Source of the DNA: Candidatus Gastranaerophilales bacterium
GTDB lineage: Bacteria > Cyanobacteriota > Vampirovibrionia > Gastranaerophilales > Gastranaerophilaceae
Assembly (NCBI GenBank): GCA_944324905.1
Contig: CALUYB010000002.1
Location: 17,834 to 81,833, forward strand
Reading direction: 5' to 3'
Length of the DNA stretch: 64,000 nucleotides
The position numbers were made by a program, and so were the translations under genes. Shown here in pieces: positions 19,228 to 60,371 of this stretch (position 1 is the stretch's first letter; every line of letters begins with the position of its first letter). The notes below the pieces were generated by a model. It searched no databases. It saw only the letters and a list, made by a program, of their open reading frames with translations, and was not told the DNA's origin.

Positions 19228-22200
19228 ATGCGTATTAAACAGTTAGAAATAGATAACTTTAAATCCTTTGCAAACCAATATACGATTCCGTTTTTGGATG
19301 GTTTTACTGTTGTTTCGGGGCCTAACGGCTCAGGCAAAAGTAATATTATTGACAGTATTTTGTTTGCACTTGGCTTGTCAAGCGCGCGTGCGCTGCGCTC
19401 AGAACAGGGTGTCGGGGATTTAATTACTACGCATAACAAAAGAAATGAAGCGTCTGTCAGGGTAACTTTTGCTCTTGATGATGAAGATGAACTTATAATT
19501 ACAAGAAAAATCAAGAGAACTTCTCAAGGTGTGCAGAGTATTTATTATATGAATGATAAACAATGCACACTGACGCAAATCCATACTGAGCTTGAAAAGT
19601 ACAATATTTCACCAAACAGCTACAATGTAATTATGCAAGGTGATGTTACAACAATTGCAAATTGCTCCCCAAAAGAAAGAAGGCAGTATTTAGATGAAAT
19701 AGCAGGTACTGCTGATTTTGACAGGAAAATTACAGCAGCGCAAAAAGAGCTCGAAACTGTTGAAGTTAGGGTGCAAAATTCCATGATTGTAAAAAATGAA
19801 AAAGACGCCAGACTGGAAGAACTCAAGGAAGAAAGAGAAACTGCACTAAAATATAAAGCTTTAAATGATGAAAAAACAGAACTTGAAGGCAAGGTTAATG
19901 TTATAAAATACTTTGATACAAAGCGTTCTTTAGATTTGGTTCATCAAAATATTTTAACTTCAACAAAAGAAATAAAAGTTCAAAATGTTCGCCTTGACGA
20001 AACTGTATCTAAAATTGAAGACAAGAAGGTTAAATACAAAGAAATTTGCGAGATGGTTCGCGCGCAAGGTGAAGACAAGCAGCTTGAGGTTAAAAAACTT
20101 TTAGAAGAAAAAAAGGGTGAGATAAGCCGAAAAGAAACCTCTATTGCGCACAGTGACAAACTTATTTTAGACAATAAAAAAACTGCTCAAAACGCTAAAA
20201 ACGGTATTGAAAATCTGACCCAAAAAAAAGAAGAAATTATAAAAGCAATTGAGGAAAAAGAGCAGCTTATAAAATCTAAAGAGGATGATTTAGAAAAGAA
20301 AAAAACAGAACTTTCTCAAATTCTTCTTGAAATGTCAGGGCTTAATAAAACAGCAGATGAACACATTGAGCGCAGAAACTTCTTAAGAAAAGAGCTGGAT
20401 GCCCTAAAAGATAAAGAAACAGAGCTTATAAAAACAAAACTTCCGCTTGAAAACGAGCTAAATAACCTTCAAAAAGAGCTAAACGAAACAAATAAAAAAA
20501 TAGAAGAACTTGAAGAAGGACAAAAAACCTTTGATAACAAGCGCGACAAACTTGAATTGCAAATTCAAACTTTGCAAAAAGAGCTTGAGGAGTGTAAAAC
20601 TGTTCAGAAAATAACTTTTGAAGATTTAGATAAAACACGCACTCAATTGCAGGACTTAGAGCATAATATTCAACTTTCGCACAGAAAAATAGCAACACTG
20701 GAGGCTAATAAGCAAGCTTATAAAACAGTTGCACTGGGTGCAGGTGTTGAAACAATCATGAATTCTCACCTTGAAGGAGTGCACGCACCTCTAATGCAGT
20801 TGGCAGAGGTTGATGGCGAGTTTAGTGACGCTATTGATGTTGCGATGGGTGGTCGTTCAAGATTTGTAGTAGTTGAAGATGAAAACGTTGCAGCACGTGC
20901 AATTCAAATATTAAAGTCACAAGGTCGCGACAGGGCAACGTTTTTACCGTTAAATAAAATCAAAAAAGCCCCCTCTCGCCTGTCTTTGCCAAAAGATGAA
21001 GGTGTTATTGATTTTGCAATAAATCTTATTGATTTTGATGACAAGTATATTGATGCTTTTTATTTTGCGCTGGGCGAGACGATTGTCGTTGAAAGCCTTG
21101 ACTGTGCCAAAAAATTAATGAGTAAATATAGAGTTGTTACACTCGAAGGGGATATTTTTGAAAAAACAGGTGCTATAACAGGTGGTGCAAGGAAAAGAGC
21201 AACTTCAACATTTGGAAAAGCAGAAGATAAGGAGCTTGAAACATTTAAAAAACGCTTAAGAGCTTTTGAAATTGAATACAAAGAGCTTGAGCAAAAAAGA
21301 AACACTTTAGACAAACGTCTGGAGCAGGTAAGAGCTGATTTTTCAAATGCGTCAAATGTTTATAACAGTGCAAAGTATGAGTTGCAAAATTTAATTAAAG
21401 TTAATTCAGGCGCAAAAGAGGCAATTGAAAAAGGCTTTGCAAGGATTAATGAAATAACCCCAAAAATCAAGGAAAATGAAAAGAAACTTGACTCTATGGA
21501 AGCGCAACACGTTGATATGCTTGATAAAATAACTCAAGTGCAAAGTGAAATAGATGAAGTTGAAAAGCTTATTGATGAAGGGGAGCTAAAAGAGTTAAAA
21601 GAAAAAACTCAAGGTGTTGAAAATCAAATACGTGATTTAGAGCGTGAAATTTTAAATATTCAAAACGACATTGAAAAAGAAAAAAATAATATAAAATTTC
21701 ACGATATGAGTATTAAACAAAGGCAAGATGATATTGTTCGCACAAGCGAAGAAAACGAAAAACTCGAAGAAGACAAGAAAAAATACGCAAAAGAAATTGA
21801 AGAACTTACAGTAGTATTAAAAGAATATGAAGAAAAAATTGAAGAACTTGGTAAAAACCTTGTTCAATTCCAAAAACAACGCGATGAGGCTCAAAATGAG
21901 CTTTTAGAGCTTGAGAAAACAAAAAATAATATTGAAGCTGAACTTGAGAGAATTAACGAACAAATTGAAAGCTCAAAAGCGCGCAGACGCGAGCTTGAAC
22001 CTTTGCTTGAGCAGACTGCAAGGGAATTAGAAGAAGCAGGGGTTAATGTAAAAGAAGTTGAGCCGACAGAAATTTCACTTGATGAAATTAATTCAAAAAT
22101 TCAAAAATTGCAAAAGAAAATGGAAGCGTTGGGTCTTGTAAATATGCGCGCAATCAATGACTATGACAATGTTGCAAGCGCGCTAAATGAATTGACCCAA

Positions 22201-31304: not shown

Positions 31305-32231
31305 CTATATTAGGCTTAATGCCAATGAAGGTAATTGGTTAGCTTGTGTTAACATTGAACCTGAAACTTGTTCAAGTATTTGTTGTTTTATCATTTCAGA
31401 GCTTGCTTCTGCAACGTCTGTATCTGTAATTCTTGATTTAGCAGTTGTTATATTTTCAACAGTAATTGTTAAATTATCATATGTTGATGTCATTCTGTTC
31501 AAATAACCGCCTAAAAGACCCCTTGCTTCGGTTACATTTGTAATTGCTGCTTGAATTGTATCCATATATGCCCTAAAATTATCGCCTGTGGGGTCAAAAT
31601 CTCCACTGGTTGGGTCTAATTCAGGTGGTAAAATAATACCATCTACTGTTCCTGAGTCTGTTGTTGTCCCAATACCCAGTGTTGACAGGTGGCAGTCCGT
31701 AAATGCTCCTGAAATATCAAGAGTATTTAAAGGATTATCTGCGTTTTGAGTATCAGAGTAAGGGCCGATTTGAACGATGAATCTTTTGTCTGGATCATTT
31801 GGGTCAAATGTTCCATCTAACATTGTTCTTCCGTTAAATTGTGTTGATTGTGCGACAACATTAATGTCTTCCAATCTTTGCTGAACTTCCACAAGAATTG
31901 CTTTTCTTGATTCGACACTGTTTGTGTCGTTTGCACCTTGGATTAAAAGTTCGTTAATTCTTTGCAAGTGATCACCGATTGTAATCATCCCGCCCTCTGC
32001 TACTGCTGCAAAGTTTTGTGCGTCTTGCACGTTGTCCATTGCTCTGTTTGAGCCATTAATTTGGACTCTCATGTTTTCTGAAATCACAAGCCCTGCTGCA
32101 TCGTCACCGGCGTTGTTAATTCTTTTACCGGTTGTTAGTTGCTGCATAGCCTTTTGTAAAGCACTGAGTGACTTGTTAAGGCTGTTTTGGGCAATTAGTG
32201 ATGGTACGTTAGTGTTTACTGAAATTGCCAT
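31305..32231 (-). CDS. fliC: Flagellin
   Basis: N-terminus MAISVNTNVPSLIAQNSLNKS...RINNAGDDAAGL and C-terminus ...EASSEMIKQQILEQVSGSMLTQANQLPSLALSLI are canonical D0/D1 flagellin ends. The variable region is short and T/D/G-rich. Confidence 0.92.
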   Translation of the reverse strand: MAISVNTNVPSLIAQNSLNKSLSALQKAMQQLTTGKRINNAGDDAAGLVISENMRVQINGSNRAMDNVQDAQNFAAVAEGGMITIGDHLQRINELLIQGANDTNSVESRKAILVEVQQRLEDINVVAQSTQFNGRTMLDGTFDPNDPDKRFIVQIGPYSDTQNADNPLNTLDISGAFTDCHLSTLGIGTTTDSGTVDGIILPPELDPTSGDFDPTGDNFRAYMDTIQAAITNVTEARGLLGGYLNRMTSTYDNLTITVENITTAKSRITDTDVAEASSEMIKQQILEQVSGSMLTQANQLPSLALSLI

Positions 32232-41388: not shown

Positions 41389-43395
41389 ATGTACAGCCGA
41401 ATTTTTGGGATGGAAGTAATGAATAATTTTTTTATAGGAATTTTATTTTTTATACTGAGCGGGTTTATTGCAAGTATTTTTCGAAAAGAAAATAAAATTA
41501 AAATACTGAGCATTTTGTGTTTTATAGGTTCTTTATTCTGTTTAACTCCGGCAGTAAGTGTGCTTTTTAGCGGTCAAAATTTAATCACAGAGTGCAATTT
41601 TAATCCCATTTTTGGGACAATAAACTTTACACTTGATCCACTAAGTGCTTTTTTTGTAGTTGTAATAAGTGTAATGAGCCTTATGGGGGTAATTTATTCA
41701 AAGGGTTATTTAAAACCATATCTTGATAAAGTAAAAAATATTAATTCTCATTTAATATTTTTACCTTTACTTATAGCTTCAATGTTACTTGTGGTAAGTT
41801 GTCAAAATGCTTTTGCATTTTTAATTTTTTGGGAAATAATGTCCTTAAGCTCATTTTTCCTTGTTATATTTGAATCAGACAAAAAGGACGTCTTGAAAGC
41901 CGGAATAAAATACCTTGTTTTCATGCACATTTCTGTAATTTTTATAATAATTGCTTTTGCGCTTTGTGCAATAAATGCAGGCGGATATGACTTTAGTTTA
42001 TTTTCTCAAGTTTTAAGAGAAAATTCACATTTGGCAAATCTAGTTTTTGCTTTTGCATTCATTGGTTTTGGCACAAAGGCAGGTTTTGTACCTTTTCACA
42101 ACTGGTTGCCAGATGCACACCCTGCAGCACCAAGCCATGTCAGCGCAATTATGTCAGGAGTTATGATAAAAACAGGTATTTATGGAATTTTAAGAGTTCT
42201 ATCTTTTTATGCAACACCATCTAAAGCACTTGCATTTGCTGTTCTTATAATTTCCGTTATATCGGCACTTTATGGGGTTTTATATGCCATAACCCAGCAT
42301 GACCTAAAAAGACTTTTGGCTTACCACTCTATTGAAAATATAGGTATAATAGGGATTGGCACAGGAGTAGGTATGTTAGGTCTTGCATACGGACAAATAC
42401 AAATTGCTCTTATTGGTTTTGCAGGTGCAATTTTACACATATTAAACCACTCAATATTCAAAGAACTTTTATTCTTGAGCGCAGGCAGCGTTTATATTAA
42501 AACACATACTCGTGATATTGAAATCTTAGGCGGGTTAATAAAATCAATGCCATTTAGTGCGGTGTTATTTCTAATAGGCTCTGTCGCAATTTGTGGTCTA
42601 CCTCCATTTAACGGCTTTATCAGTGAATTTTTAATATACTTTTCAATGTTAAAATGTCTGGCAGTTAAAGATTTCTTTGTGCTTATTGCACTGTTATTTT
42701 CCATTGCAGGATTGGCATTGGTTGGTACAATGGCTGTCTTGTGCTTTACAAAAGCATTCAGCATAATATTTTTAGGAATGCCAAGAAGTGAAAATGCAAA
42801 AGCACCGACATCGGATTGCGAAAAGTCAATGCTTATGCCTATGGGATTTTTAGCAATTTTAACGCTGTTAATAGGCATTTTCCCTCAGTATGTATTTGAT
42901 GTTGTGCTAAAACCGGCTGCAACTGTTGCAAATACAAGCATAATGCCAATCGGAACCTGTGCAGATTTAATGCAGACAATTTCACTGTGCGCATTTGGCT
43001 TTATTGCTTTTGTAATTATACTTTTACTGTTTAAACTTAAATTTTCAGGTAAAGTTCAAATGCACGACACCTGGGGTTGCGGTTATGATAGAGCAAATAA
43101 TCGCATGCAATACAGTGCATCCTCCTATGCAAGCCCGTTTTTATCGATGTTAAGACCTTTATTTAAAAAGATTTTCGACATTGAAAAACCAAAACAACTT
43201 TTCCCGAAATCTGCACACTTTAGCTTGCATATAGATGATATTGAAGAAGCTTATGTTATTAATCCGCTTGTTAAATTTGACGAATGGTTCTTGTCAAAAT
43301 TTGAAGCTATACAAAGTGGTAATATTCAAAGTTACATAAAATACGGGCTAATATTTTTAGTTTTAATAATAATCGGAAGTTTGTTTATAGGATAA
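41389..43395 (+). CDS. Antiporter-like membrane subunit (HyfB/HycC/NuoL family) of a group-4 hydrogenase-related complex
   Basis: 668 aa, polytopic. Carries the WLPDAHPAAPSHVSA and LAYHSIENIG blocks of the Mrp/NuoL family. The start is uncertain (41389, 41410 or 41419), because the predicted promoter would leave almost no leader for 41389. Confidence 0.85.
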   Translation: MYSRIFGMEVMNNFFIGILFFILSGFIASIFRKENKIKILSILCFIGSLFCLTPAVSVLFSGQNLITECNFNPIFGTINFTLDPLSAFFVVVISVMSLMGVIYSKGYLKPYLDKVKNINSHLIFLPLLIASMLLVVSCQNAFAFLIFWEIMSLSSFFLVIFESDKKDVLKAGIKYLVFMHISVIFIIIAFALCAINAGGYDFSLFSQVLRENSHLANLVFAFAFIGFGTKAGFVPFHNWLPDAHPAAPSHVSAIMSGVMIKTGIYGILRVLSFYATPSKALAFAVLIISVISALYGVLYAITQHDLKRLLAYHSIENIGIIGIGTGVGMLGLAYGQIQIALIGFAGAILHILNHSIFKELLFLSAGSVYIKTHTRDIEILGGLIKSMPFSAVLFLIGSVAICGLPPFNGFISEFLIYFSMLKCLAVKDFFVLIALLFSIAGLALVGTMAVLCFTKAFSIIFLGMPRSENAKAPTSDCEKSMLMPMGFLAILTLLIGIFPQYVFDVVLKPAATVANTSIMPIGTCADLMQTISLCAFGFIAFVIILLLFKLKFSGKVQMHDTWGCGYDRANNRMQYSASSYASPFLSMLRPLFKKIFDIEKPKQLFPKSAHFSLHIDDIEEAYVINPLVKFDEWFLSKFEAIQSGNIQSYIKYGLIFLVLIIIGSLFIG

Positions 43396-43401
43396 GATAA
43401 A

Positions 43402-44319
43402 ATGGCAATTAAAATTTTAAACATATTAATAGTTTTATTTGTTCCGTTTTTAATGCTTGGTGTTATTAAAAAAACAAAAGCATTTTGGGGCGGAAGATAC
43501 GGTGCATCAGTATTTCAGCCGTTGTATGATTTTATAAAGTTAATGAAAAAAGATTTTGTGATAAGTAAAACTACAAGCGGTGTCTTTAGAATTACGCCTG
43601 TTATAGTCATTGCAAGTGTGCTTTTTGCAGCTTTATTTGTACCTTTGGCTTCATCAAGCGCAATAATTAACATAGAGGCCGGTTTTATAGTTTTTGCTTA
43701 TATTTTAAGCTTTTCAAAATTTTTCTCACTAATTTCCGCTATGGATACAGGCAGCAGTTTTGAAGGTATGGGAGCATCCCGTGAAGCTTGTTTTACAACA
43801 ATTGTTGAACCTGCATTTTTTATGCTCTTAGCCTCTATTATGGCACTGAGCGGAAATTATACTTTTGATTCTCTTGGAAAAATCATTGAAAACGCAGGCG
43901 GATATGGAATTTTAATCTGTATTTTTGCAATACTTGTACTTTTTATAATGATTTTAACTGAAGGTTCAAGGGTTCCTGTTGATGACCCTGCAACACACCT
44001 TGAATTAACTATGATTCATGAAGTTATGATTTTAGATAACTCGGCATCTGATTTAGCTCTTATCAGTTGGGCAAACGGTATAAAAATGCTATTGTTATCA
44101 TCTTTAATTGCTGCAATTGTTATTCCTCAGGGTATTGGTACGGGACTTTCAATTTGTGCTTACCTTGGTTTAATGTTTTTAATTTCCGTTATAATCGGAA
44201 CTATTGAGTCCGCAACAGCAAGAATAAGGATGTCGCACGTTTTTGAATTTGTTTTTATAATGAGTTCATTTGCGCTTATTGTTCTGTCTTTGGTTGCTGC
44301 AAGGATGTTTGGAGGCTAA
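43402..44319 (+). CDS. NuoH/HyfC/HycD-like membrane subunit
   Basis: 305 aa, polytopic. EGSRVPVDDPATHLELTMIHE resembles the conserved HycD/NuoH loop. Confidence 0.8.
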   Translation: MAIKILNILIVLFVPFLMLGVIKKTKAFWGGRYGASVFQPLYDFIKLMKKDFVISKTTSGVFRITPVIVIASVLFAALFVPLASSSAIINIEAGFIVFAYILSFSKFFSLISAMDTGSSFEGMGASREACFTTIVEPAFFMLLASIMALSGNYTFDSLGKIIENAGGYGILICIFAILVLFIMILTEGSRVPVDDPATHLELTMIHEVMILDNSASDLALISWANGIKMLLLSSLIAAIVIPQGIGTGLSICAYLGLMFLISVIIGTIESATARIRMSHVFEFVFIMSSFALIVLSLVAARMFGG

Positions 44320-52310: not shown

Positions 52311-52467
52311 TTTTACCTCTTTCTTTTTTTGAATTTATAAATCTTATTGGTAAAAATAACATCCCCCTAAAGGAGAGATATTAAAATTTGTAAAAAATGC
52401 TAAGAATTTTTATTTTTTTAGCAAAAAATATTTTTCAAGGAATTTGTACAAGAAAACGAGGATAAAA

Positions 52468-55400
52468 ATGAGAATAGATAAAATTTCAAGTGCATACGGA
52501 CAAAATTATTTAAACAAATTAAACAAAAAAAGCGGGTACAAATTTCAAACCTACCCAGTGATTAATGATTTACCTAATGCAAATAGTGCTTATTTTAATA
52601 TAAATTTTTCAGGGTCTTACGAAAAAGCAAACCTTAAAAAGTTTTCAGATAATCAGGAAAAATTTACTTTAATTGCAAATAAAACATGGAATAAAACCAG
52701 ATACATAGCAAAAAAATTTAATCATTCTCAAATAACTTCAGAGCACTTATATGTTGTGGTTTTGAACGATTTAATTAAATATATTGATAAATTAAATTCC
52801 GGTGTAAGACATGAAGAAGAAAAACAATATTCCGCACCTGTTACTTTAGAGGCATTTTTTGGTAGGCGAGAAATTTTTGAGGATAAAGAAGCAAGAACAA
52901 AATTAAAGGAAATATTGGAAAAATATCTGAAAGAAGGATTGAGGGATTTAAAAAATAATGACAGAATTCCAAAAGCAGGCATATTCGAGCCAAGACTTTC
53001 ACCAAGATTGGCGGCTGATTTAAACAAGGGCTTTGAAGTGAAAGAATCTACTTATGAGACAGGCTTATTTAGTGATGATGTTTTCTTGCTTGCTTTGCTT
53101 GCAGGTAGTGACAATAAAATTGTAAAAAAATTCCGCGAAATGGATTTTGAAGTACAAAAGGCAACAATGGTGGAAGATAATTCAGTAAACCAAAAAAATC
53201 ACTTGCCATTTTATGACAATCTTGCAGATAAACTTTGGAAAAACATTGACCTTGGAAATGATATGTATATTACATATGAGGGTGAAAATAAAGAGTCTTC
53301 AAAACATTTGATTTCGAGTTTTACAAATTTAATTAATAAACCAAATCAAAAATACAATAATTTAAATGCTCAAAATACAAAAATTGTGGTGTTTAACCAA
53401 TATGGGATATATTCTGCAATTGAAAATTATGTTGAAGAAGCAAAAAAACATCCCGAAACAACATACGTGTTAATGTATGACTTTGCAGATGTTGCAAAGA
53501 GTAATGCTTTGGCGGAGGAAAGAGCTGAAATTGGGTTAAATGAAAATGAGTTAAAACTTTTGGAAAATTCACAAGTCCCAAATGTTAGAATGGTGATGAT
53601 TTCAAACAAAGATGCCTATTATGCAAACGCTCAGCAAAGTCCAATTATTAAAAAGAGCTTAGCTCATTATGGTGTGCTTTCAATTCCTATGATTAACTCA
53701 AGCGATGCAAAAGAAATACTGGCAAGCGAAAATGGTAAAAAATACATAGAAAAAAGAATAAATAAAGAAATCGATTTGCAAGCGATAAGTCAAGTTATCG
53801 ATTTTACGAATAAAACAGAGGGTTATTATCCTGAAAAAGCGCTAAGTTATGTCGATAAAATGGCATCTTATTATATCGACAAAAAACAACTAACGTTTGA
53901 AGACGTTCAAAGTTATGAAAAAGAGATTGGAGACATTCAACAAAAAAGCGACAGTTCTCAGAGTGATTTTAAAATAACTTTTAATACAGGCAAAAATCTT
54001 GATGATATTATTGGCAATCCTATGACAAAAGCAGAGGCTAAAAGTATCGTAAACCAGATTTTAATGAAAAGAAAGGGTGGAACAAAAGGGTTTATAACAT
54101 TTTTAAATAATGGGAGTTCATACGGTGGCGGCAGAAGGCACACTGCACAATGTATCGCAGGGGAAGCTCAAATACCTATGATTACAGTAAATGCACGTGA
54201 TTTCGCCCTAAAAGATATTGATGCGCTTAGCATGAATGCTAATTTGTCGGAAATAAAAATCAAGAAGCTTTTTGATATGGCAAAGGCTCAAGCAAGTGTT
54301 AATAAAAATAAAACAGCAATGATATTTATTGAAAACTTTGATAACTTTGCATCTAATCCACTGTATGGGGTTTCATCAATATATGAACAAAAAGCATTTT
54401 CGCAACTGCTTGAAGAAATGGATAAATTAAGAGATCAAGACGATGTAAACATTGTGGTTATAGGTTCTCTTAACTATCCGAATTTGCTTGATGAAAATGT
54501 TATGAAACCATATAAATTTTTAGATCAAATAATTGTTTATTCTCCACAGGATAATCGCGATAGAGAAGATGTCCTAAGATATTATGCAAATAAAAACGGT
54601 TTAAAAATAGGTGAAACGCCTGAAGAAAAAGATAAAATATTAAAAAATGCCTCAGAAACAACTATGGGCTTTAGTGTGGTAGATATAATATATTTGCTTG
54701 AAAAAGCTGAACAAGTTTCAAAAGAAAGAGGCAAGGAATTTATCGATAAAGCTGATATTACAGAGGCCTTTTTGCAAACAACAACGGGCAGACCATCTTC
54801 AAGAGAATATTCTTCACACAGAAATGCTATTGTTGCAAAACATGAATGCGGACATGCCCTAACTCTTCAAGTTATGCATGATATAGCAAAAAAAGAAAAT
54901 AAACCTTGGCATTTGCCTGATAAGATTAATTTTATTACTCTTGATCCAAGAGGAAATTATGGTGGTGCAATGTATCCAAAGGATTCTGAAAATGAAGAAT
55001 ATAGTTTTGAAAAAGTGTTTTCAGAAATGGTTTGCGACTTTGGTGGTTATTCGTCCGAAAAACGTTTTTACAATATGCAGGGTAGCTGGGGTATAACTCA
55101 AGATATGTCAATGGCAACCGAAGTTGCAAGGCTTGCAGTTGAGAAAATGGGCATGGGTGCTAAAACCGGAAGAATTTCAATCGATTCAAATCCGTATATG
55201 CAAACATTTATTTCAGACAGCATGAAAGATAAAATCAATTCAGATATTGAAGTGATGCTTAAAAATGCAGAGTATGTTTCTAATGAAATTGTAAGCACTT
55301 ATGCTGATTTTATTGAGCAATTTGGCGAAAAATATCAAGACAAAGTAGGAACAGGCGAGTGCATAATTATGTCTGATGAATTTCAAGAACAGCTTGAGAA

Positions 55401-55509
55401 CTGGAAAAATTCTTTAAGTTGGGATAAAAAACAAAAACTTTTAGAGTTGGAAAATAAAATTTTAGATGTAATTGAAAAAACTAAAAAAGGTGAGCTTGTA
55501 AAACAATAA
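52468..55509 (+). CDS. Soluble FtsH-like protein: Clp_N-like repeats, degenerate AAA+ module and M41-type HExxH peptidase domain
   Basis: ATG at 52468 after GAGGA. ITSEHLYVVVLND and DDVFLLALLAG are Clp_N-like. The Walker A position reads NNGSSYGGGRRHT and Walker B reads MIFIENFDNF. HECGH lies at 54841-54855, followed by LDPRGNYGG and GITQDMSMATEVA, which parallel FtsH IPRGxALG and GASNDIxxAT. Confidence 0.75.
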   Translation: MRIDKISSAYGQNYLNKLNKKSGYKFQTYPVINDLPNANSAYFNINFSGSYEKANLKKFSDNQEKFTLIANKTWNKTRYIAKKFNHSQITSEHLYVVVLNDLIKYIDKLNSGVRHEEEKQYSAPVTLEAFFGRREIFEDKEARTKLKEILEKYLKEGLRDLKNNDRIPKAGIFEPRLSPRLAADLNKGFEVKESTYETGLFSDDVFLLALLAGSDNKIVKKFREMDFEVQKATMVEDNSVNQKNHLPFYDNLADKLWKNIDLGNDMYITYEGENKESSKHLISSFTNLINKPNQKYNNLNAQNTKIVVFNQYGIYSAIENYVEEAKKHPETTYVLMYDFADVAKSNALAEERAEIGLNENELKLLENSQVPNVRMVMISNKDAYYANAQQSPIIKKSLAHYGVLSIPMINSSDAKEILASENGKKYIEKRINKEIDLQAISQVIDFTNKTEGYYPEKALSYVDKMASYYIDKKQLTFEDVQSYEKEIGDIQQKSDSSQSDFKITFNTGKNLDDIIGNPMTKAEAKSIVNQILMKRKGGTKGFITFLNNGSSYGGGRRHTAQCIAGEAQIPMITVNARDFALKDIDALSMNANLSEIKIKKLFDMAKAQASVNKNKTAMIFIENFDNFASNPLYGVSSIYEQKAFSQLLEEMDKLRDQDDVNIVVIGSLNYPNLLDENVMKPYKFLDQIIVYSPQDNRDREDVLRYYANKNGLKIGETPEEKDKILKNASETTMGFSVVDIIYLLEKAEQVSKERGKEFIDKADITEAFLQTTTGRPSSREYSSHRNAIVAKHECGHALTLQVMHDIAKKENKPWHLPDKINFITLDPRGNYGGAMYPKDSENEEYSFEKVFSEMVCDFGGYSSEKRFYNMQGSWGITQDMSMATEVARLAVEKMGMGAKTGRISIDSNPYMQTFISDSMKDKINSDIEVMLKNAEYVSNEIVSTYADFIEQFGEKYQDKVGTGECIIMSDEFQEQLENWKNSLSWDKKQKLLELENKILDVIEKTKKGELVKQ

Positions 55510-55561
55510 CCTTGTGGGCTAATTTACCCTAATTAAAATGCGCACTATAATCTCAATAAAA

Positions 55562-56911
55562 ATGAGGATTATGGTGCGCAAATTTCTTATAATATTTTTG
55601 ATTTTTCTTATTTTGCCCGCTTTTGCAAAAAGTGAGCAAGCACTTGATTTTAATAAAAGAATATCCTACATTAACCTTAATTTTTGGCGAAAATTTAATG
55701 ACGAGTATTTAATTTACTACATTTTAGAGGCAACAAAAAACAATCATAAAGCAAAAAGCGCACTATACAAAAGCGAGCAATTCAGGCAAAATATAAAGCT
55801 TAGCTTTGCAAATCAACTACCATCGCTAAGTGTTGCGGCAAATTATTTAGGTTTAAAAGTTCCAATGCTTGATAATTTTGCAGTCAAGAAAAATGGATTT
55901 ATTTTGCCCTTTGAATTTAACTATGAGGCTGATTTGCTGCTTAAAAACAGAGATAAAACAAAATCTCAAGAAAAACTCTACAAGGCGCAGTTGTATGATG
56001 AAAAAACAGTTTATATAATGCTTGCGGCAGATGTTGCAACGACTTATATAAATATTTTAAAATTCGATAAAACGCTTGAGCTGCAAGAAAAAATTGTCCA
56101 AAACAAGGGGGAGATTTTAAAAAGAGTAGATAAAAAATACAAATGCGGGACTATTTCAAAAACAGAATTAAATGATGCAAAAAAAGATTTTGCAAGCGAA
56201 AATCAAGAGCTTGAAAATATAAAAAAACAAAGAACACTGCTTTTAGATAACCTTGCCTTGCTTTGCGCCAAAAGTGCTTATAATATTGATGAGTTTAAAA
56301 GGGGTGATTTTGATAATTTTGCACAAAACTTAGTTATGCCTGATGAAATTTCATCGGATTTAGTTTTTAATCGTCCAGATGTTTTGGCTGCTCTTGAGAA
56401 ATTAAAAAGTGCAAAAATAGATATTCTCGTTGCAAAAAAAGATTTTTTCCCAACCTTTAATATTCGAGGCATCTACGCTTTTAACACCTTTGGTCCTGGA
56501 AATTTTTTCTCTTGGGGTGCAACTTTAGCAACGCTTGTGGCCGGTGCTACTCAGGGAATTTTCGAAGGCGGCAGAAAAGTTGCAAATTTAAAATTTCAAA
56601 AAGCTTATTATAACGAGCTTTTTGAGAATTTTTTGCACAGTGATTTAAATGCAATTAAAGAGGTAAATGACGCGCTGTATCAGGCAAAATACGATTTAAA
56701 AATATTAAATGAAGCAACAGAAAAGTTTGCTGCCCAAAAAAGTAATTTTGAGCTAGAAAAATCGCGTTATAAAAACGGAGTAAGTGATTTTATTTCTTTG
56801 TTAAATGAAAGTTCTCAAGTGCTTTTAGAGGGGCAAAATTATATAGAGAAAAAAACACAAAAGTTTTTAGATATGGTTTCCCTTTATAAATCTGTAGGGG
56901 GCGCGCTGTGA
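55562..56911 (+). CDS. TolC-like outer-membrane efflux protein
   Basis: Signal peptide FLIIFLIFLILPAFA. Two helical OEP repeats with a typical NRPDVLAA...L..A block. The start is ambiguous (55538, 55562 or 55571). Confidence 0.8.
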   Translation: MRIMVRKFLIIFLIFLILPAFAKSEQALDFNKRISYINLNFWRKFNDEYLIYYILEATKNNHKAKSALYKSEQFRQNIKLSFANQLPSLSVAANYLGLKVPMLDNFAVKKNGFILPFEFNYEADLLLKNRDKTKSQEKLYKAQLYDEKTVYIMLAADVATTYINILKFDKTLELQEKIVQNKGEILKRVDKKYKCGTISKTELNDAKKDFASENQELENIKKQRTLLLDNLALLCAKSAYNIDEFKRGDFDNFAQNLVMPDEISSDLVFNRPDVLAALEKLKSAKIDILVAKKDFFPTFNIRGIYAFNTFGPGNFFSWGATLATLVAGATQGIFEGGRKVANLKFQKAYYNELFENFLHSDLNAIKEVNDALYQAKYDLKILNEATEKFAAQKSNFELEKSRYKNGVSDFISLLNESSQVLLEGQNYIEKKTQKFLDMVSLYKSVGGAL

Positions 56912-57783
56912 AACACAAAAAAATATTAATTGCATTAGCGGTTATCCTTTTAATTTTTTTGATTGTTTTTATTTATTTAAAATTAAACAAGAAAAACCCT
57001 GATATTTTAACTTTGTATGGAAATATTGAAATACGTCAGGTCGACTTAGGTTTTAGGGTTGAAGGACGCGTTAAAAAACTTTTAAAAGAAGAAGGGGATG
57101 AAGTTAAAAAAGGCGAATTGCTTGCAATTTTAGATGATGTTACCTACAGGGCAAAATATGAAAAATCCCTGCAAGATATAAATTTGTACAAAGCGCAAAG
57201 TGAAAATGCTGATTTAATTTATAAAAGAAATATAGAACTTTGCGCAGATGGCACAACCTCTAAGCAGGATTGTGACGGTTTTACAAGGAACAAAAAGGCG
57301 TCATACGCAAAGGTAGAATCAGAAAAGAAGCAAAATAGAATTTATAAAGATGATTGGGACAATACAAAAATTTACGCTCCAAATGATGGAATTGTAACAA
57401 CCAGAATAGTTGAAGAAGGCGCTGTTGTGAATATTTCGACACCTGTTTATACAATTTCATTAAACAAACCTGTTTGGATTAGGACATATGTCAGCGAAAG
57501 AGATTTAGGAAATATAAAATACAACATGAAAGCTCAGGTTTTAACTGACACAATCGACCCAAAAACAGGCAAAAAACGAGAATATCAGGGTAGAATAGGT
57601 TATATTTCACCTGTTGCGGAATTTACCCCGAAAACTGTGCAAACACAGGAGCTAAGGACAGATTTAGTATATCGCATTAGAGTTTATGTTGATGAAGGTG
57701 ACAAGTTTTTAAGACAAGGTATGCCAACAACTATACAAATTAACTTATTGCAGGATAACAATGACAGTAGCAATCGAAATTGA
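56908..57783 (+). CDS. HlyD-family periplasmic adaptor (YbhG-like)
   Basis: GTG start overlapping the upstream stop. N-terminal TM segment, then GNIEIRQVDLGFRVEGRV and LRQGMPTTIQI. Confidence 0.85.
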   Translation: MKHKKILIALAVILLIFLIVFIYLKLNKKNPDILTLYGNIEIRQVDLGFRVEGRVKKLLKEEGDEVKKGELLAILDDVTYRAKYEKSLQDINLYKAQSENADLIYKRNIELCADGTTSKQDCDGFTRNKKASYAKVESEKKQNRIYKDDWDNTKIYAPNDGIVTTRIVEEGAVVNISTPVYTISLNKPVWIRTYVSERDLGNIKYNMKAQVLTDTIDPKTGKKREYQGRIGYISPVAEFTPKTVQTQELRTDLVYRIRVYVDEGDKFLRQGMPTTIQINLLQDNNDSSNRN

Positions 57784-59272
57784 AAATCTGAATTATAAAT
57801 TTAAAAACAGTAAAACTTTTGCCCTTAAAGACATATGTGCAAAAATTAAAAAGGGTGTAATAACAGGTATAATAGGGCCTGACGGTTCAGGCAAAACAAC
57901 TCTTTTAAGGAGTATAACAGGGCTTTTATTGCCTCAAGGCGGTAGTATTAAAACTTTTGACTTTAGTCCTGTAGAACAGCAAGAAAAAATTAATAAAATT
58001 TTAGGTTATATGCCTCAGAAATTCGGGCTTTATGAGGACTTAAGCGTAGAAGAAAATCTGGAACTGTATGCACAACTAAAGGAGTTGCCGGAAGAAAACA
58101 GGGAACAAACTTTTGAAAAACTCTATCGTTTTACCAATCTTGACCCCTTTAAAAAAAGGCTTGCAGGCAAACTTTCAGGCGGAATGAAACAAAAGTTGGG
58201 TCTTGCTTGCGCGCTTTTAGGCAAGCCTGATTTACTTGTGCTTGATGAACCCTCGGTTGGAGTAGACCCTATTTCAAGGAAAGAACTGATGAATATGGTG
58301 CGCGAGCTTTCATCAGGCGATACGACAACAATATGGTCAACTGCATATATGGACGAGGCTCAAAGTTTTGATTTTTGCATTGTTTTAAATGGCGGCGAAA
58401 TTATATACAATGGAACACCCTCAGGGCTTGGCAGCGATACTAAAACTTTTGAAAACCGCGTTATTGAGCTTATGGGCGGATACAAGGAAAGAAAAACACC
58501 TCTTGCGGATGATTTTGTACTAAAAGAAACAGGAGTTGATTGCCCCGTTAGTGCCATTGGACTTGAGAAAAAATACGGTGATTTTTATGCTGTTAAAAAT
58601 AACACTTTTTGTATCCAAAAAGGTGAAATATTTGGACTACTAGGTCCAAATGGTGCAGGAAAATCCACCTCTTTTAAAATGATGTGCGGACTTATAACCC
58701 CGAGTGCAGGCAAGGCGGAGATTATGGGTGTCGATATAGTAAAAAATCCATCTAAAGCTCGCTCATTTATTGGCTATATGGCACAAAAGTTTTCTCTTTA
58801 CGGTAATTTAGATGTCTTAGGAAATCTTGACTTTTTTGCAAGTATATATGGACTTTCAGGCAAGAAAAAAGAAAAGGAAATAAAAAAAGTTATTGAAACT
58901 TTTGAACTTGAGCCTTTTTTAAAGCAAGACACAAAAGAATTGCCGCTTGGCTTCAAGCAGAGATTAGCTCTAGCATGCGCTATTATGCACAAACCGCCGG
59001 TTTTATTTTTGGATGAACCGACTTCAGGTGTTGATCCTATTGCGAGAAAAGAATTTTGGTCGCATATAAAAGCTCTTTCAAAAAAAGGTGTCACAACAAT
59101 GGTGACTACGCATTTTATGGATGAGGCGCGCTACTGTGACAGAATTAGCCTGTTTTATAACGGTGAAACAATAGCCATAGGGACTGTTGAGGAGCTAATA
59201 AAAAGTGCACAGGTAAATACTATGGAGGAGGCTTTTTGCGTTTTAATTGAGAGGTCTAAAATGAATGAGTAG
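57761..59272 (+). CDS. Tandem-domain ABC ATPase (YbhF-like)
   Basis: Two complete nucleotide-binding domains: GPDGSGKTT / LSGGMKQKL / LVLDEP and GPNGAGKST / LPLGFKQRL / LFLDEP. Confidence 0.9.
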   Translation: MTVAIEIENLNYKFKNSKTFALKDICAKIKKGVITGIIGPDGSGKTTLLRSITGLLLPQGGSIKTFDFSPVEQQEKINKILGYMPQKFGLYEDLSVEENLELYAQLKELPEENREQTFEKLYRFTNLDPFKKRLAGKLSGGMKQKLGLACALLGKPDLLVLDEPSVGVDPISRKELMNMVRELSSGDTTTIWSTAYMDEAQSFDFCIVLNGGEIIYNGTPSGLGSDTKTFENRVIELMGGYKERKTPLADDFVLKETGVDCPVSAIGLEKKYGDFYAVKNNTFCIQKGEIFGLLGPNGAGKSTSFKMMCGLITPSAGKAEIMGVDIVKNPSKARSFIGYMAQKFSLYGNLDVLGNLDFFASIYGLSGKKKEKEIKKVIETFELEPFLKQDTKELPLGFKQRLALACAIMHKPPVLFLDEPTSGVDPIARKEFWSHIKALSKKGVTTMVTTHFMDEARYCDRISLFYNGETIAIGTVEELIKSAQVNTMEEAFCVLIERSKMNE

Positions 59273-60371
59273 ACTTTTTGCGCTAATTAAAAAAGAATTT
59301 TTTCAAATTACAAGAGATCCCTCAAGTGTAATGATAGCTTTTATTATGCCCCTTATGCTGTTGATAATTTATATGTATGGGGTAAATCTTGATACATCAA
59401 GGGTAAAGCTAGGGTTAAAATTTGAGGATACAAGCCCTGAACTTTCTACCCTTATGGAGTCTTTTAGTAAAAGTAAATTTGTAAGGGCAAGAATATATCA
59501 AGACAGAAAGCTGATGTATAAGGATTTAATAAGTGGCAAGATTAACGGTTTTGTAATTATACCAAATGATTTTTTAAAAAATATCCAAAGAAAAAGAGCT
59601 GCTGATGTGCAAATTGTGACAGACGGTTCTGAGGTTAACCTTTCTAATTATGTAAAAAGTTACCCTATGAGCATTATTAGTCAGTGGGTAAGTGAGAGCT
59701 CTTATAAGTATAATTTTCAAAAACCAATTTTGCAGGCGCAAATTCGCTATTGGTATAATCAGGATATTAACAGTCACCATTTTATTCTCCCTGGGTCATT
59801 AGCGATTACCATGACTTTAATTGGGATGCTTTTAACCACTCTTGTTTTGGCTCGCGAGTGGGAAAGGGGTACAATGGAGGCACTTTTGTCTACCCATGTT
59901 AGAAGGTCAGACATATTTTTGAGCAAATATATTCCTTATTTTATACTTGGTATGCTTTCTATGTCTTTTAATGTTTTTGTGTGCGTTAAAATTTTTAAAA
60001 TCCCTTTTTATGGCAGTTATATTGTACTTTTTGGGGTGTGCGCATTGTTTTTGTTTTCTGCTTTAGGGATAGGGCTTTTAATATCCTCAAATTTTAAAGA
60101 CCAATTTTTAGCAAGTCAAACAGCTTTATCTATTGGTTTTTTGCCGGCATTAATGCTCTCAGGGCTTACTTTTCCAATAGATTCAATGCCTGAAATATTG
60201 CAGAATATAACTAAAATAATCCCCACAAGGTATTTTGTGGCTTTTATCCAAAGCGAGTTTTTAGCAGGCACCGTTTGGGAAATTGTGCTTATAAATTCAA
60301 TATTTTTAATATTTTTGGGCACTATTTGCGCATTTTTAGTTTATAAAAACATAAAAACAAGGGTTGAGTAA
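59265..60371 (+). CDS. ABC-2 type permease (YbhS/YbhR-like)
   Basis: N-terminal KKEFFQITRDPSS, a large extracytoplasmic loop and five further TM segments. Confidence 0.85.
   Translation: MSRLFALIKKEFFQITRDPSSVMIAFIMPLMLLIIYMYGVNLDTSRVKLGLKFEDTSPELSTLMESFSKSKFVRARIYQDRKLMYKDLISGKINGFVIIPNDFLKNIQRKRAADVQIVTDGSEVNLSNYVKSYPMSIISQWVSESSYKYNFQKPILQAQIRYWYNQDINSHHFILPGSLAITMTLIGMLLTTLVLAREWERGTMEALLSTHVRRSDIFLSKYIPYFILGMLSMSFNVFVCVKIFKIPFYGSYIVLFGVCALFLFSALGIGLLISSNFKDQFLASQTALSIGFLPALMLSGLTFPIDSMPEILQNITKIIPTRYFVAFIQSEFLAGTVWEIVLINSIFLIFLGTICAFLVYKNIKTRVE

Follow-up and report, generated by a model that had tools for sequence, protein, structure and literature searches.

Background

By definition, FtsH is a protease that is anchored in the membrane and depends on ATP, and to our knowledge its sole well-known degenerate forms are FtsHi and Ycf2 of plastids, in which the protease has been lost and the motor kept. 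Some other AAA rings are structural and do not hydrolyse ATP, e.g., the D2 ring of NSF and the D1 ring of Pex1/Pex6, and these usually keep the canonical P-loop lysine and bind ATP. In the Lon family, LonC of Meiothermus taiwanensis has no ATPase activity; its hexamer binds six nucleotides, and it needs no ATP to degrade unfolded substrates (PMC3391209; PMC13069640). Full-text searches of the literature turned up neither a soluble ATPase-dead FtsH nor a fusion of Clp with FtsH. Here we describe a protein from a Gastranaerophilales bacterium, a member of an uncultured and little-studied lineage of the human and animal gut related to the cyanobacteria, that represents the reverse of plastid evolution, i.e., all motor residues have been swapped for others that are now fixed and strongly conserved, and nothing has changed at the zinc site. 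A first-pass annotation of the locus had proposed a protease-competent FtsH-type pseudo-ATPase, the opposite of plastid FtsHi, and this proposal is supported by the sequence, by conservation across the family and by the predicted fold.

Gene and overall architecture

The window analyzed is a stretch of 64,000 nucleotides, to which all coordinates refer, and all features described lie on its forward strand. The gene (52468..55509) begins with an ATG at 52468, placed 6 nt downstream of a Shine-Dalgarno sequence (GAGGA), and ends with a stop codon at 55507-55509, encoding a soluble product of 1013 aa (designated class A, see below). An alternative in-frame start (TTG, 52444) is less likely, because the N-termini of homologues read MKIxxI, as does the ATG product. 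The 240 homologues are about 1000 aa in size and show full-length coverage even at 35% identity. The AF2 model has a pLDDT of 89.5, but as the full-length pTM is only 0.58 the predicted arrangement of the domains relative to each other is uncertain. Residues 1-48 are disordered and are followed by soluble helical domains, with no N-terminal transmembrane anchor; the maximum Kyte-Doolittle hydropathy over 19 residues reaches 0.93, as against 2.89 in the FtsH of the same genome, in agreement with the earlier claim that a transmembrane helix is missing. The sequence strings quoted by the first-pass annotation were all recovered where it had placed them, i.e., GSSYGGGRRHT (residues 549-559), IENFD (621-625), SLNYPNLLDENVMKPYKFLD (667-686) and HECGHAL (792-798), along with LDPRGNYGG, GITQDMSMATEVA, AGEAQIPMITVNARDF, GFSVVDIIYLLEKA, ITSEHLYVVVLND and DDVFLLALLAG. 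Membership in a defence system was considered and rejected, as PADLOC gave no match for the protein and only generic AAA models for its relatives.

The N-terminal half corresponds to an entire Clp N-domain plus D1 module, and the protein is therefore a Clp/FtsH chimera, a fusion of the N-terminal half of a Clp chaperone to an FtsH protease. The Clp/Hsp100-type N-domain consists of two helical repeats (residues 50-235; 52615..53172) and was recognized by family profile, PDB profile and Foldseek. Within the same genome, the family profile of this half retrieves the ClpB-like protein (hmm positions 59-238, E 4e-5), the ClpC-like protein (E 5e-7) and a protein with 4xClp_N (E 9e-12). Its matches to PDB profiles are weak, 13 of the 16 being Clp/Hsp104 N-domains; Pfam Clp_N scores above threshold in several class A members, and the top 50 structures retrieved by Foldseek with the model of this half are all ClpC, ClpB, Hsp104 or ClpA, spanning N-domain and D1. 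The D1-like pseudo-AAA that follows (53200..53961) has a large domain without P-loop (residues 245-405) and an AAA_lid_9-type lid (residues 410-498), for which the Pfam match is weak (0.019) and in which YPEKA corresponds to LPDKAIDL of Clp proteins. It aligns colinearly with the D1 of ClpC/ClpB from the Walker B strand through the lid, and superposes on the D1 of ClpC1, ClpA and ClpB over about 275 columns at 4-5 Å; only a 4-residue loop, with no glycine-rich stretch, separates strand 265-270 from helix 275-288, and the Walker B glutamate is missing. The fold thus confirms both the pair of Clp_N-like repeats and the further, degenerate nucleotide-binding region that had been suspected from the letters. 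The second AAA module is of FtsH type and not a Clp D2 (AAA_2, ClpB_D2-small), by Pfam, NCBIfam, PDB and fold alike. For this N-terminal half, phmmer run exhaustively on 1.84 billion representatives gave only 55 matches, of which the long ones have the class A size of about 1000 aa and align across the N-half, most others being fragments.

A replaced motor and an intact zinc site

The FtsH-type (classic clade) AAA module occupies 53980..54801, with a large domain at residues 505-695 and a lid at 696-778. The profile search recommended by the first-pass annotation returned significant matches to Peptidase_M41 (7e-17) and AAA (8e-11), both passing the curated cut-offs. Further support comes from phmmer against solved FtsH structures (1.5e-26), from the family profile against FtsH in the PDB (1.3e-41) and from Foldseek with the AF2 model, which superposes on FtsH, AFG3L2 and YME1 with TM 0.78-0.86 and an rmsd of about 3.6 Å over about 480 columns. 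Against the FtsH equivalog model TIGR01241 the protein scores 132.3 bits, below the cut-off of 600 bits.

Aligned by HMMER with three FtsH structures and with the family profile, the C-terminal part shows the block-by-block pairing first proposed for it, as well as the motor residues that have been replaced. At the P-loop (54112..54144), GxPGxGKT is paired with G(S)SYGGGRR, the lysine being replaced by arginine and the threonine by arginine or lysine, with one residue inserted; G553, G555 and R556 are invariant, the last being arginine in 116/116 full-length homologues, and position 557 is R or K. A functional P-loop hidden by misalignment can be dismissed, since all these alignments concur and the pattern GxxxxGK[ST] has zero matches in the 121 class A family members. 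At the former pore-1 loop (54205..54252, ALKDIDALSMNANLSE), LKDIDALS stands where FtsH has [FY]VG, so the aromatic-hydrophobic-glycine signature is absent; the charged residues K582, D583 and D585 are conserved there. The DGF motif is also lost. IDEID of Walker B is paired with IENFD (54322..54342, IFIENFD), in which the aspartate has become E622 (108/116) and the catalytic glutamate N623 (113/116), and RPGRFD with KPYKFL, so that both arginine fingers of the SRH (54502..54519, MKPYKF) are lysines, K680 in all 116 sequences and K683 in 97 of them (R in 17), while the sensor-1 residue Asn669 is retained. The replacement of Walker A, Walker B and the SRH arginine, noted earlier for this single protein, is thus found throughout the full-length homologues. 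Canonical FtsH, tandem-AAA FtsH and the soluble classes B, C and D all keep GxPGxGKT, [FY]VG, IDE, MDG, ATN and R..GR, and only in class A are all six motifs replaced together.

The peptidase M41 domain (residues 779-955; 54802..55332) carries a family-specific insert containing KPWHLP (residues 807-817). Its zinc site, H792-E793-x-x-H796 (54841-54855), is intact, as had been stated from the sequence, and the third ligand is D879 (55102-55104); these four residues and E864 are invariant in 116/116 full-length homologues. We regard the protein as a probable protease on these grounds, although intact zinc ligands are no proof of activity. A C-terminal extension (residues 956-1013; 55333..55506; KVGTGxCII..F..L..W) is shared with the soluble classes B, C and D and not with canonical FtsH, in agreement with the reach of the class A C-half profile, which extends to position about 505-511 in the former and ends at about 455 in the latter.

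The exchange of motor residues does not look like decay. In the AAA module, the columns without variation are clustered at the former nucleotide site, and comparison with a 98%-identical strain (19 synonymous and 3 non-synonymous differences) gives a dN/dS of 0.16 overall and of 0.04 in the AAA module, where purifying selection is the strongest within the protein. Given that the replacement residues are invariant and selection on them is this strong, the sequences indicate that the ATPase site has been remodelled into another strictly conserved set (R556, E622-N623, K680, K683), which may still bind a ligand, while ATPase activity itself has presumably been lost. The lysine-to-arginine swap in the P-loop and the arginine-to-lysine swaps at the fingers make a clean test case for the ligand of a remodelled nucleotide pocket.

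Origin and distribution

Class A is the ATPase-dead branch of a soluble FtsH-like clade of Vampirovibrionia, defined here as classes A-D, which is undescribed and unpublished as a family. The clade is marked by the absence of a transmembrane anchor, a leader of the MKIxxI type, a C-terminal extension past M41 and monophyly apart from canonical FtsH (SH-aLRT 100, branch 1.06), and class A shows all of these traits. Class A itself forms a monophyletic group (SH-aLRT 100) whose stem is 2.2 substitutions/site long and which lies beside the ATPase-intact class D, and the tree points to a single event of origin. Classes B and D are intact forms, while class C is the mirror image of class A, with an intact ATPase and a destroyed HExxH (AREAGK/H). 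A single lineage thus offers a comparison series of intact (B, D), protease-dead (C) and ATPase-dead (A) forms, raising the questions of what purpose AAA rings serve when they burn no ATP, and of how an M41 chamber is fed without a translocating pore loop.

The gene was found in 40 of 123 genomes of its family. With the N-half alone as query, it was recovered from 19 of the 73 genomes searched within the family, and the 177 genomes searched across 10 further families of the same class gave none. Five negative genomes, including a single-contig assembly, still yielded no class A gene when they were searched with a same-genus query and every candidate was scored. The gene is therefore confined, among the families searched, to one family of Vampirovibrionia, in about 26-33% of its genomes; it is dispensable, and a role in core proteostasis appears excluded by this patchiness. 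Its variable presence in a gut lineage suggests that it may mark a niche-specific trait.

Mode of action

On balance, and judging from sequence and models, we favor the view that class A is an ATP-hydrolysis-independent zinc metalloprotease, i.e., the FtsH counterpart of LonC, and consider it somewhat probable. It would be a cytoplasmic and probably ring-forming enzyme of four tiers in which ATP is no longer hydrolysed: a Clp-type N-domain that most likely takes in substrates or adaptors, a D1-like AAA shell without any nucleotide loop, an FtsH-type AAA shell with its catalytic residues swapped for other conserved ones and without the aromatic of the pore loop or the DGF motif for signalling between subunits, and an M41 protease with the HExxH...D zinc site intact. 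The two pseudo-AAA tiers would serve as a static scaffold and gate over the protease chamber, not as a motor, and the protease would need no energy input, as in LonC, its substrates being proteins that are unfolded, unstructured or docked in a specific manner. The persistence of the remodelled, positively charged pocket is probably explained either by continued binding of a nucleotide or another phosphate ligand or by inter-subunit contacts that hold the ring together. In FtsH, substrates get to the protease sites by being actively translocated along the AAA pore; the favored reading does not account for the way they would enter a motorless class A protein, which counts against it.

A second reading, which we rate as unlikely yet worth weighing, is that the protein gives only the proteolytic sites and a Clp-N receptor and relies on an AAA+ unfoldase that is active, be it the membrane FtsH in mixed rings (as in FtsHi/FtsH12 or m-AAA) or ClpC, ClpB or ClpX through coaxial stacking. 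The genome of origin (99.5% complete) would have such partners to offer, encoding one canonical FtsH, ClpC-like, ClpB-like and ClpX-like proteins and two ClpP. Hetero-hexamers are known among FtsH paralogues (review PMC9020784), and class C, which keeps the ATPase and has lost HExxH, indicates by its mirror-image state in a sister clade that division of labour does evolve in this superfamily. However, no partner gene is linked to class A in any of 15 orthologous loci: the flanks of 12 hold no ORF homologous to the window, three further contexts with Pfam labels are mutually unrelated, and the neighbouring peroxiredoxin is common only to the 98%-identical strain, so that a conserved operon partner was rejected. 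Class C was likewise rejected as a general partner, being found in only 1 of 126 family genomes, and the genome of origin has no class B, C or D paralogue. The lack of both a conserved neighbour and a sister-class partner leans towards autonomy. Furthermore, the inter-subunit elements that couple neighbours in mixed rings (arginine fingers, DGF) are altered, and the AAA+M41 module, already separated from its nearest relatives by its long stem, is still farther from canonical FtsH.

Quite unlikely, in our estimate, is an exported protease, a reading that starts from the disordered leader at residues 1-49 (MRIDKISS...NINFSG; 52468..52614; pLDDT <50 for residues 1-48). The leader has the form MKIxPI..., followed by polar residues and [IV]xFxG, and its profile, once iterated, settles on 15 ORFs of this genome (E 4e-15 to 4e-5), always at the extreme N-terminus; these otherwise unrelated proteins are mostly orphans, some with weak kinase, PARP/ART-like or RelA-SpoT-like matches, and sister classes B-D share the leader as well. 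It could be a sorting signal with which the protein leaves the cytoplasm, e.g., via a flagellar-type export apparatus, which is retained in this lineage also where flagella or flagellin are missing; the ATPase would have been lost because the protein works where ATP is absent, the rings and the zinc protease being kept. Class A would then be one of about 15 effector-like, leader-marked cargoes of a lineage-specific export route, a similarly doubtful notion that, if true, would make it an exported AAA+-derived protease. In keeping with export, one leader protein directly adjoins a second SLT-FliF-x-FliH-FlhA cluster, FlhA of that second-cluster type is retained in aflagellate genomes, and a preprint notes retained flhB/fliI/flgG with a postulated role in extracellular secretion (10.64898/2026.04.24.720558). 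Yet the leader profile does not support a flagellin-like export signal (E > 0.3 against the N-termini of five flagellins of the same genome), and presence of the class A gene is unrelated to that of FlhA or of flagellin, which occurs only in genera g16, g20 and g22 and the genus of origin, while the gene also occurs in the aflagellate genera g2, g5, g7, g11 and g13. Classes B and D, moreover, have the same leader and retain every ATPase motif, and the leader might equally be a degron, propeptide or localisation tag. It hints at sorting or export, and the favored ATP-independent protease makes no use of it.

The conserved glycine-rich loop, together with the arginine in it and the lysines at both fingers, could also mean a working non-canonical NTPase, in which Arg556, Glu622, Asp625 and Lys680/683 would bind and hydrolyse ATP or another NTP and so power an energy-dependent protease. 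The modelled strand-loop-helix geometry is retained (strand 540-546, helix 556-567), G553, G555, R556, K680 and the sensor-1 N669 are conserved, and the strongest purifying selection falls on this very module. Against this stands the joint alteration of six independent determinants (Walker lysine, Mg-binding threonine, Walker B aspartate and glutamate, both arginine fingers) and of the elements that turn hydrolysis into work, i.e., the pore-1 aromatic and DGF. Mutagenesis of AAA+ proteins has established that a Walker lysine-to-arginine change alone, or a Walker B change of glutamate to glutamine or asparagine alone, abolishes hydrolysis. We hold a working NTPase to be very improbable. A fully non-catalytic scaffold or regulator, with the protease site conserved for binding only, is hardly credible: pseudopeptidases are reported to be common in metallopeptidase families (PMC11266112) and the gene is dispensable in many genomes, but the zinc-site and catalytic residues are invariant and did change in the truly protease-dead class C.

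Comparison with known systems

Class A resembles FtsH (MEROPS M41; TIGR01241) in having a classic-clade AAA, lid and M41 in the same order and with closely similar folds, and in keeping the zinc site, E864 and the PRG substrate strand; it differs in the absence of the transmembrane anchor, in the replacement of Walker A/B, pore-1 loop, DGF and both arginine fingers, and in the addition of the Clp N-D1 half, the M41 insert and the C-terminal extension. With the class I Hsp100/Clp proteins (ClpA, ClpB, ClpC, Hsp104) it shares the two-repeat N-domain, the D1, the AAA_lid_9 lid with its PDKA helix and a second AAA thereafter, a two-tier layout resembling that of ClpA/ClpC. In contrast to them, its D1 has neither P-loop nor Walker B glutamate, the protein lacks an M-domain, an FtsH-type module makes up the second tier, and the protease is fused in cis instead of being a separate ClpP. 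The D2 of NSF and the D1 of Pex1/Pex6 are likewise AAA tiers kept for assembly and not for work, whereas in class A arginine stands in place of the lysine and other residues in place of the Mg ligands. The MoxR-vWA conflict systems also contain tandem FtsH-type AAA proteins (PMC7159879), but these are a different thing.

FtsHi and Ycf2 of the plastid import motor, structures of which (8xku, 8xqw) are also retrieved by Foldseek with the class A model, are FtsH paralogues that gave up one of two activities, as class A seems to have done. The activities are reversed, however, HExxH being lost and the ATPase kept, and FtsHi is membrane-bound, eukaryotic and part of hetero-hexamers; its prokaryotic mirror image within the superfamily is class C, not class A. 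LonC has a Ser-Lys Lon protease domain instead of M41 and no Clp half, and its properties are experimental while those of class A come from sequence and models. Nevertheless, LonC, which belongs to an AAA+ protease family but has lost the canonical AAA+ motifs and kept its protease, may well be the functional analogue of the enzyme proposed here.

A soluble FtsH relative with a replaced ATPase site

The class A gene is a single open reading frame of 1013 codons (window 52468-55509, + strand) with a GAGGA ribosome-binding site 6 nt 5' of its ATG (52468). An in-frame TTG at 52444 is an unlikely start, as the MKIxxI opening of the homologues is matched by the protein that starts at the ATG. The ten peptide strings quoted in the first-pass annotation were all found where it had placed them. 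Of the domains it had named, Peptidase_M41 (7e-17, residues 782-953) and AAA (8e-11, residues 555-685) scored above the Pfam gathering threshold and Clp_N fell below it, as did AAA_lid_9 (residues 424-500). Given that the protein reaches only 132 bits against the NCBIfam FtsH equivalog (cut-off 600), we consider it a relative of FtsH and not FtsH itself. No transmembrane segment was detected in a hydropathy scan (maximum 0.93 vs 2.89 in the FtsH of the same genome), in agreement with the earlier claim of a soluble protein. Residues 513-959 align with the solved FtsH structures of Aquifex, Thermus and Thermotoga (phmmer, 1.5e-26; 1.3e-41 with a class A family profile against solved FtsH structures), and the C-terminal half of an AF2 model built from 109 homologues (mean pLDDT 89.5) superposes on FtsH, AFG3L2 and YME1 (TM 0.78-0.86, rmsd ca. 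3.6 Å), which bears out the FtsH-like nature proposed for this half.

A homologue search recovered 240 proteins, nearly all of ca. 1000 aa and covered over their full length at identities as low as 35%; the few named ones are annotated as "AAA family ATPase" and come from Candidatus Gastranaerophilales MAGs. Motif states were counted in 116 full-length class A members. The replacements read by eye in the first pass recur in the alignments, i.e., GxPGxGKT of Walker A is matched by G-S-S-Y-G-G-G-R-R (one inserted P-loop residue, the Walker Lys replaced by Arg556 and the Mg-binding Thr by Arg557), IDEID of Walker B by IENFD, and RPGRFD of the arginine-finger region by KPYKFL, which has no Arg. 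The ATNRP stretch aligns with SLNYP, so the sensor-1 Asn is retained, the inter-subunit signalling motif MDGF reads MDKL, and the alignment holds no counterpart of the pore-1 loop [FY]VG. A functional P-loop hidden by misalignment, for which the first pass had allowed, was not seen, as canonical Walker A is absent from every member (0/116). All 116 carry Arg at position 556, whereas position 557 holds R (61) or K (49); E622 occurs in 108 members, N623 in 113 and K680 in every one, with K (97) or R (17) at position 683. The invariant AAA columns (G553, G555, R556, F624, F627, G666, S667, K680, F684) cluster at the former nucleotide site. Comparison with a 98%-identical strain gives a dN/dS of 0.16 for the whole gene and 0.04 for the AAA module, the latter from small counts (19 synonymous and 3 non-synonymous changes). 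Based on these conserved replacements and the low dN/dS, the ATPase site has been rebuilt as a different, conserved site and is not drifting; the earlier description of the ATPase motifs as dead thus holds for the canonical motifs, but the site itself is remodelled. The HExxH protease site is intact as described, with H792, E793, H796, the third zinc ligand D879 and E864 each invariant (116/116).

A Clp-like N-terminal half

The ORFs of the own genome were all screened with a residue 1-500 profile made from 109 homologues. The best non-self match was a 456-aa protein of four Clp_N repeats (9e-12), followed by ClpC-like (825 aa, 5e-7) and ClpB-like (878 aa, 4e-5) proteins. The 456-aa protein (G000:C21:13387-14754, - strand) has no AAA module and is possibly adaptor-like. 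The Clp matches are colinear, N-domain repeats lying on N-domain repeats, and residues 315-463 match Clp D1 from its Walker-B strand to the end of the lid (Clp LPDKAIDL vs YPEKA). Residues 1-500 were also modelled on their own with AF2 (pLDDT 90, pTM 0.86), and the 50 best Foldseek matches of this model were all ClpC, ClpB, Hsp104 or ClpA, spanning either the N-domain plus D1 (E to 9e-11) or D1 alone (ca. 275 columns, 4-5 Å). Both suspected N-terminal features, i.e., two Clp_N-like repeats and a second degenerate nucleotide-binding-like region, are hence confirmed by profile and by fold, the latter as a D1 fold devoid of a P-loop (strand 265-270 and helix 275-288 are joined by only four residues), of the Walker B Glu and of an M-domain. 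When this half was compared exhaustively with 1.84 billion representatives by phmmer, only 55 proteins came back, of which the long ones (ca. 1000 aa, as in the class A family) aligned over the whole half and the remainder were mostly fragments.

Sister classes and origin

Searching the phylum also returned a second, shorter kind of match, and class A proved to be one of at least four classes within a clade of soluble FtsH-like proteins, each class with an MKIxxI-type N-terminus and a C-terminal extension that FtsH lacks. While class A (ca. 1010 aa, Clp N-domain and D1-like region) has all ATPase motifs replaced and HExxH intact, class B (ca. 720-770 aa) keeps GPPGTGKT, [Y]VG, IDE, RxGR and HEAGH. 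Class D (ca. 850-912 aa) likewise keeps all ATPase motifs (RPGRFD) and HE[CG]GH, and has a D1-like region (1e-8 to 1e-17 against the class A N-half profile) with no Clp_N match. Class C (ca. 860-950 aa) has intact ATPase motifs, and in most members AREAG[KH] replaces HExxH, which makes it the mirror image of class A, a prokaryotic "FtsHi"-like pseudo-protease. Two class C genes were examined in extracted loci (L024 2809-5658; L023 3104-5950), the latter encoding a protein (P0182) that, unlike most of its class, retains HEFGH. Just upstream of both lies a divergent 62-aa RHH_1 gene (L024 2497-2685; L023 2703-2891). A class B example of 754 aa (L016 2038-4302, - strand; G275:C11) has GPPGTGKT, YVG, IDE, RKGRID and HEAGH intact, and its N-terminal region is unrelated; classes A and B co-occur in genus g16.

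In a maximum likelihood tree of the AAA+M41 module (52 sequences, LG+C20), classes A to D form one clade (SH-aLRT 100) separate from canonical and tandem FtsH, and class A groups with class D (support 83). Class A is monophyletic (100), its stem measuring 2.21 substitutions per site; ATPase loss and remodelling hence took place once, along a very fast branch, and the result was then conserved.

Distribution and genomic context

Among 123 further genomes of this GTDB family, 40 have a full-length class A orthologue. An N-half query, which does not cross-match FtsH, detected class A in 19/73 family genomes and in 0/177 genomes belonging to ten further Vampirovibrionia families, so the mapping proposed in the first pass places this architecture in part of a single family. 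Some genera have it in every genome sampled (g16 8/8, g11 3/3, g13 3/3); within g2, g5, g7, g8 and g22 it is polymorphic, and in g3, g6 and g12 it was not found. Five "negative" genomes (four g2 and one single-contig g3), searched again with a g2 orthologue as query and with all candidates scored, returned only FtsH. In one genome (G096) the gene lies in two adjacent open frames (C2:18044-19534 and 19543-20775; 593 and 424 aa), probably split by a frameshift or stop, which would mean either that the gene is being lost there or that the assembly is faulty.

Upstream of the class A gene is a divergent peroxiredoxin gene, and 28 nt 3' of its stop begins a transporter set (TolC-like outer-membrane protein, HlyD-like adaptor and double-NBD ABC ATPase; 55538-59272, + strand) with its own promoter-like site (10/12 match, 55523-55551). 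Only the 98%-identical strain has this neighbourhood too, and none of 15 other orthologous loci conserves it; PADLOC gave no match for the protein. The own genome (1.66 Mb, 99.5% complete) encodes one canonical FtsH with all motifs besides the class A gene, no class B, C or D, and also ClpX, ClpC, ClpB, two ClpP and further AAA proteins. Dependence of class A on an active AAA+ partner is, in our view, unlikely, as no linked or co-occurring candidate emerged.

The N-terminal leader and flagellar-type export genes

Residues 1-49 (window 52468-52614) are disordered in both AF2 models, and numerous further ORFs of the own genome encode similar N-termini. An iterated profile converged on 15 proteins (E 4e-15 to 4e-5), always matching at the extreme N-terminus (M[KR][IV]x[PNS][IV]..., 30-50 polar residues, then [IV]xFxG). 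They are mostly orphans, a few with weak protein-kinase, PARP/ART-like, RelA-SpoT-like or AAA matches, and, class A aside, are encoded at G000 C1:168305-169222 and 154996-156198; C2:137447-139189 and 5234-5713; C3:21103-22596, 58942-59970, 126926-128296 and 4272-4793; C4:63065-64576; C8:41735-42667 and 42695-43561; C18:6847-7719; C19:12237-12542; and C20:4434-6233. Classes B to D of the soluble clade start alike. The leader could serve as a sorting signal, as a propeptide or as a degron.

The same genome has two full FlhA, two FlhB paralogues, a truncated FHIPEP and two secretins. The truncated protein (G000:C1:163906-165351; L034 5907-7352; 481 aa) comprises only the cytoplasmic C-terminal FHIPEP/FlhA part (profile positions 321-656), and 5/5 other family genomes checked have a counterpart of ca. 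490-505 aa. A second flagellar-type export cluster (G000:C4:56350-64567; L033 6351-14568) encodes an SLT lytic transglycosylase, FliF/YscJ, an unknown protein, FliH and FlhA, and directly adjoins a leader-bearing 501-aa orphan. This adjacency, the retention of that FlhA type in five relatives without flagellin, and the proposal that such flagellar remnants may serve secretion (preprint 10.64898/2026.04.24.720558) would fit export of class A, via the shared leader, to an ATP-free place. However, the leader profile does not match the own-genome flagellin N-termini (one of the five flagellin genes lies in the window at 31806-32219, - strand; G000:C2:49639-50052), class A presence is unrelated to flagellin, itself found in only 3/13 family genera sampled, and the ATPase-intact classes B and D also bear the leader; we therefore hold export to be rather improbable.

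A possible ATP-hydrolysis-independent ring protease

As six hydrolysis determinants are replaced, the pore-1 aromatic and DGF, which convert hydrolysis into pulling, are both gone, and the zinc site is invariant, the simplest reading would be a ring protease working without ATP hydrolysis. We postulate that the two AAA tiers would serve as scaffold and gate of a ring-shaped zinc protease, that the Clp N-domain would dock substrates or adaptors, and that unfolded or specifically presented proteins would be cut without ATP hydrolysis; we lean, with modest confidence, towards this whole picture. Its parts differ in strength: judged from the sequence, class A very probably does not hydrolyse ATP like FtsH, and its protease site is quite likely functional, in line with the protease-competent pseudo-ATPase of the first pass. 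With the canonical motifs replaced throughout, a non-canonical working NTPase seems very unlikely, and with the zinc ligands invariant a wholly non-catalytic scaffold is the least credible reading. By analogy with LonC (see below), the pocket, conserved and positively charged (R556, R/K557, K680 and K683, with E622), may still bind a nucleotide or other phosphate compound, which could act as an assembly or allosteric cofactor; alternatively, these residues may pair across subunits.

Comparison with known systems

A full-text literature search found no description of such a soluble, ATPase-dead Clp-FtsH protein. The FtsH family is by definition membrane-anchored and ATP-dependent (review PMC9020784); class A has its fold and zinc site but lacks the membrane anchor, Walker A/B, pore loop and Arg fingers and falls short of the equivalog score. 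With Clp it has in common the N-domain and D1 fold, without D1 motifs or the Clp D2, and relative to FtsHi it presents the inverse pattern. The experimentally studied precedent is LonC, which is devoid of ATPase activity although its hexamer binds six nucleotides, and whose ATP-independent degradation is confined to unfolded substrates (PMC3391209); its apo state is phosphate-bound and ATPgammaS drives ring closure (PMC13069640). On the reading proposed here, class A would work like LonC.
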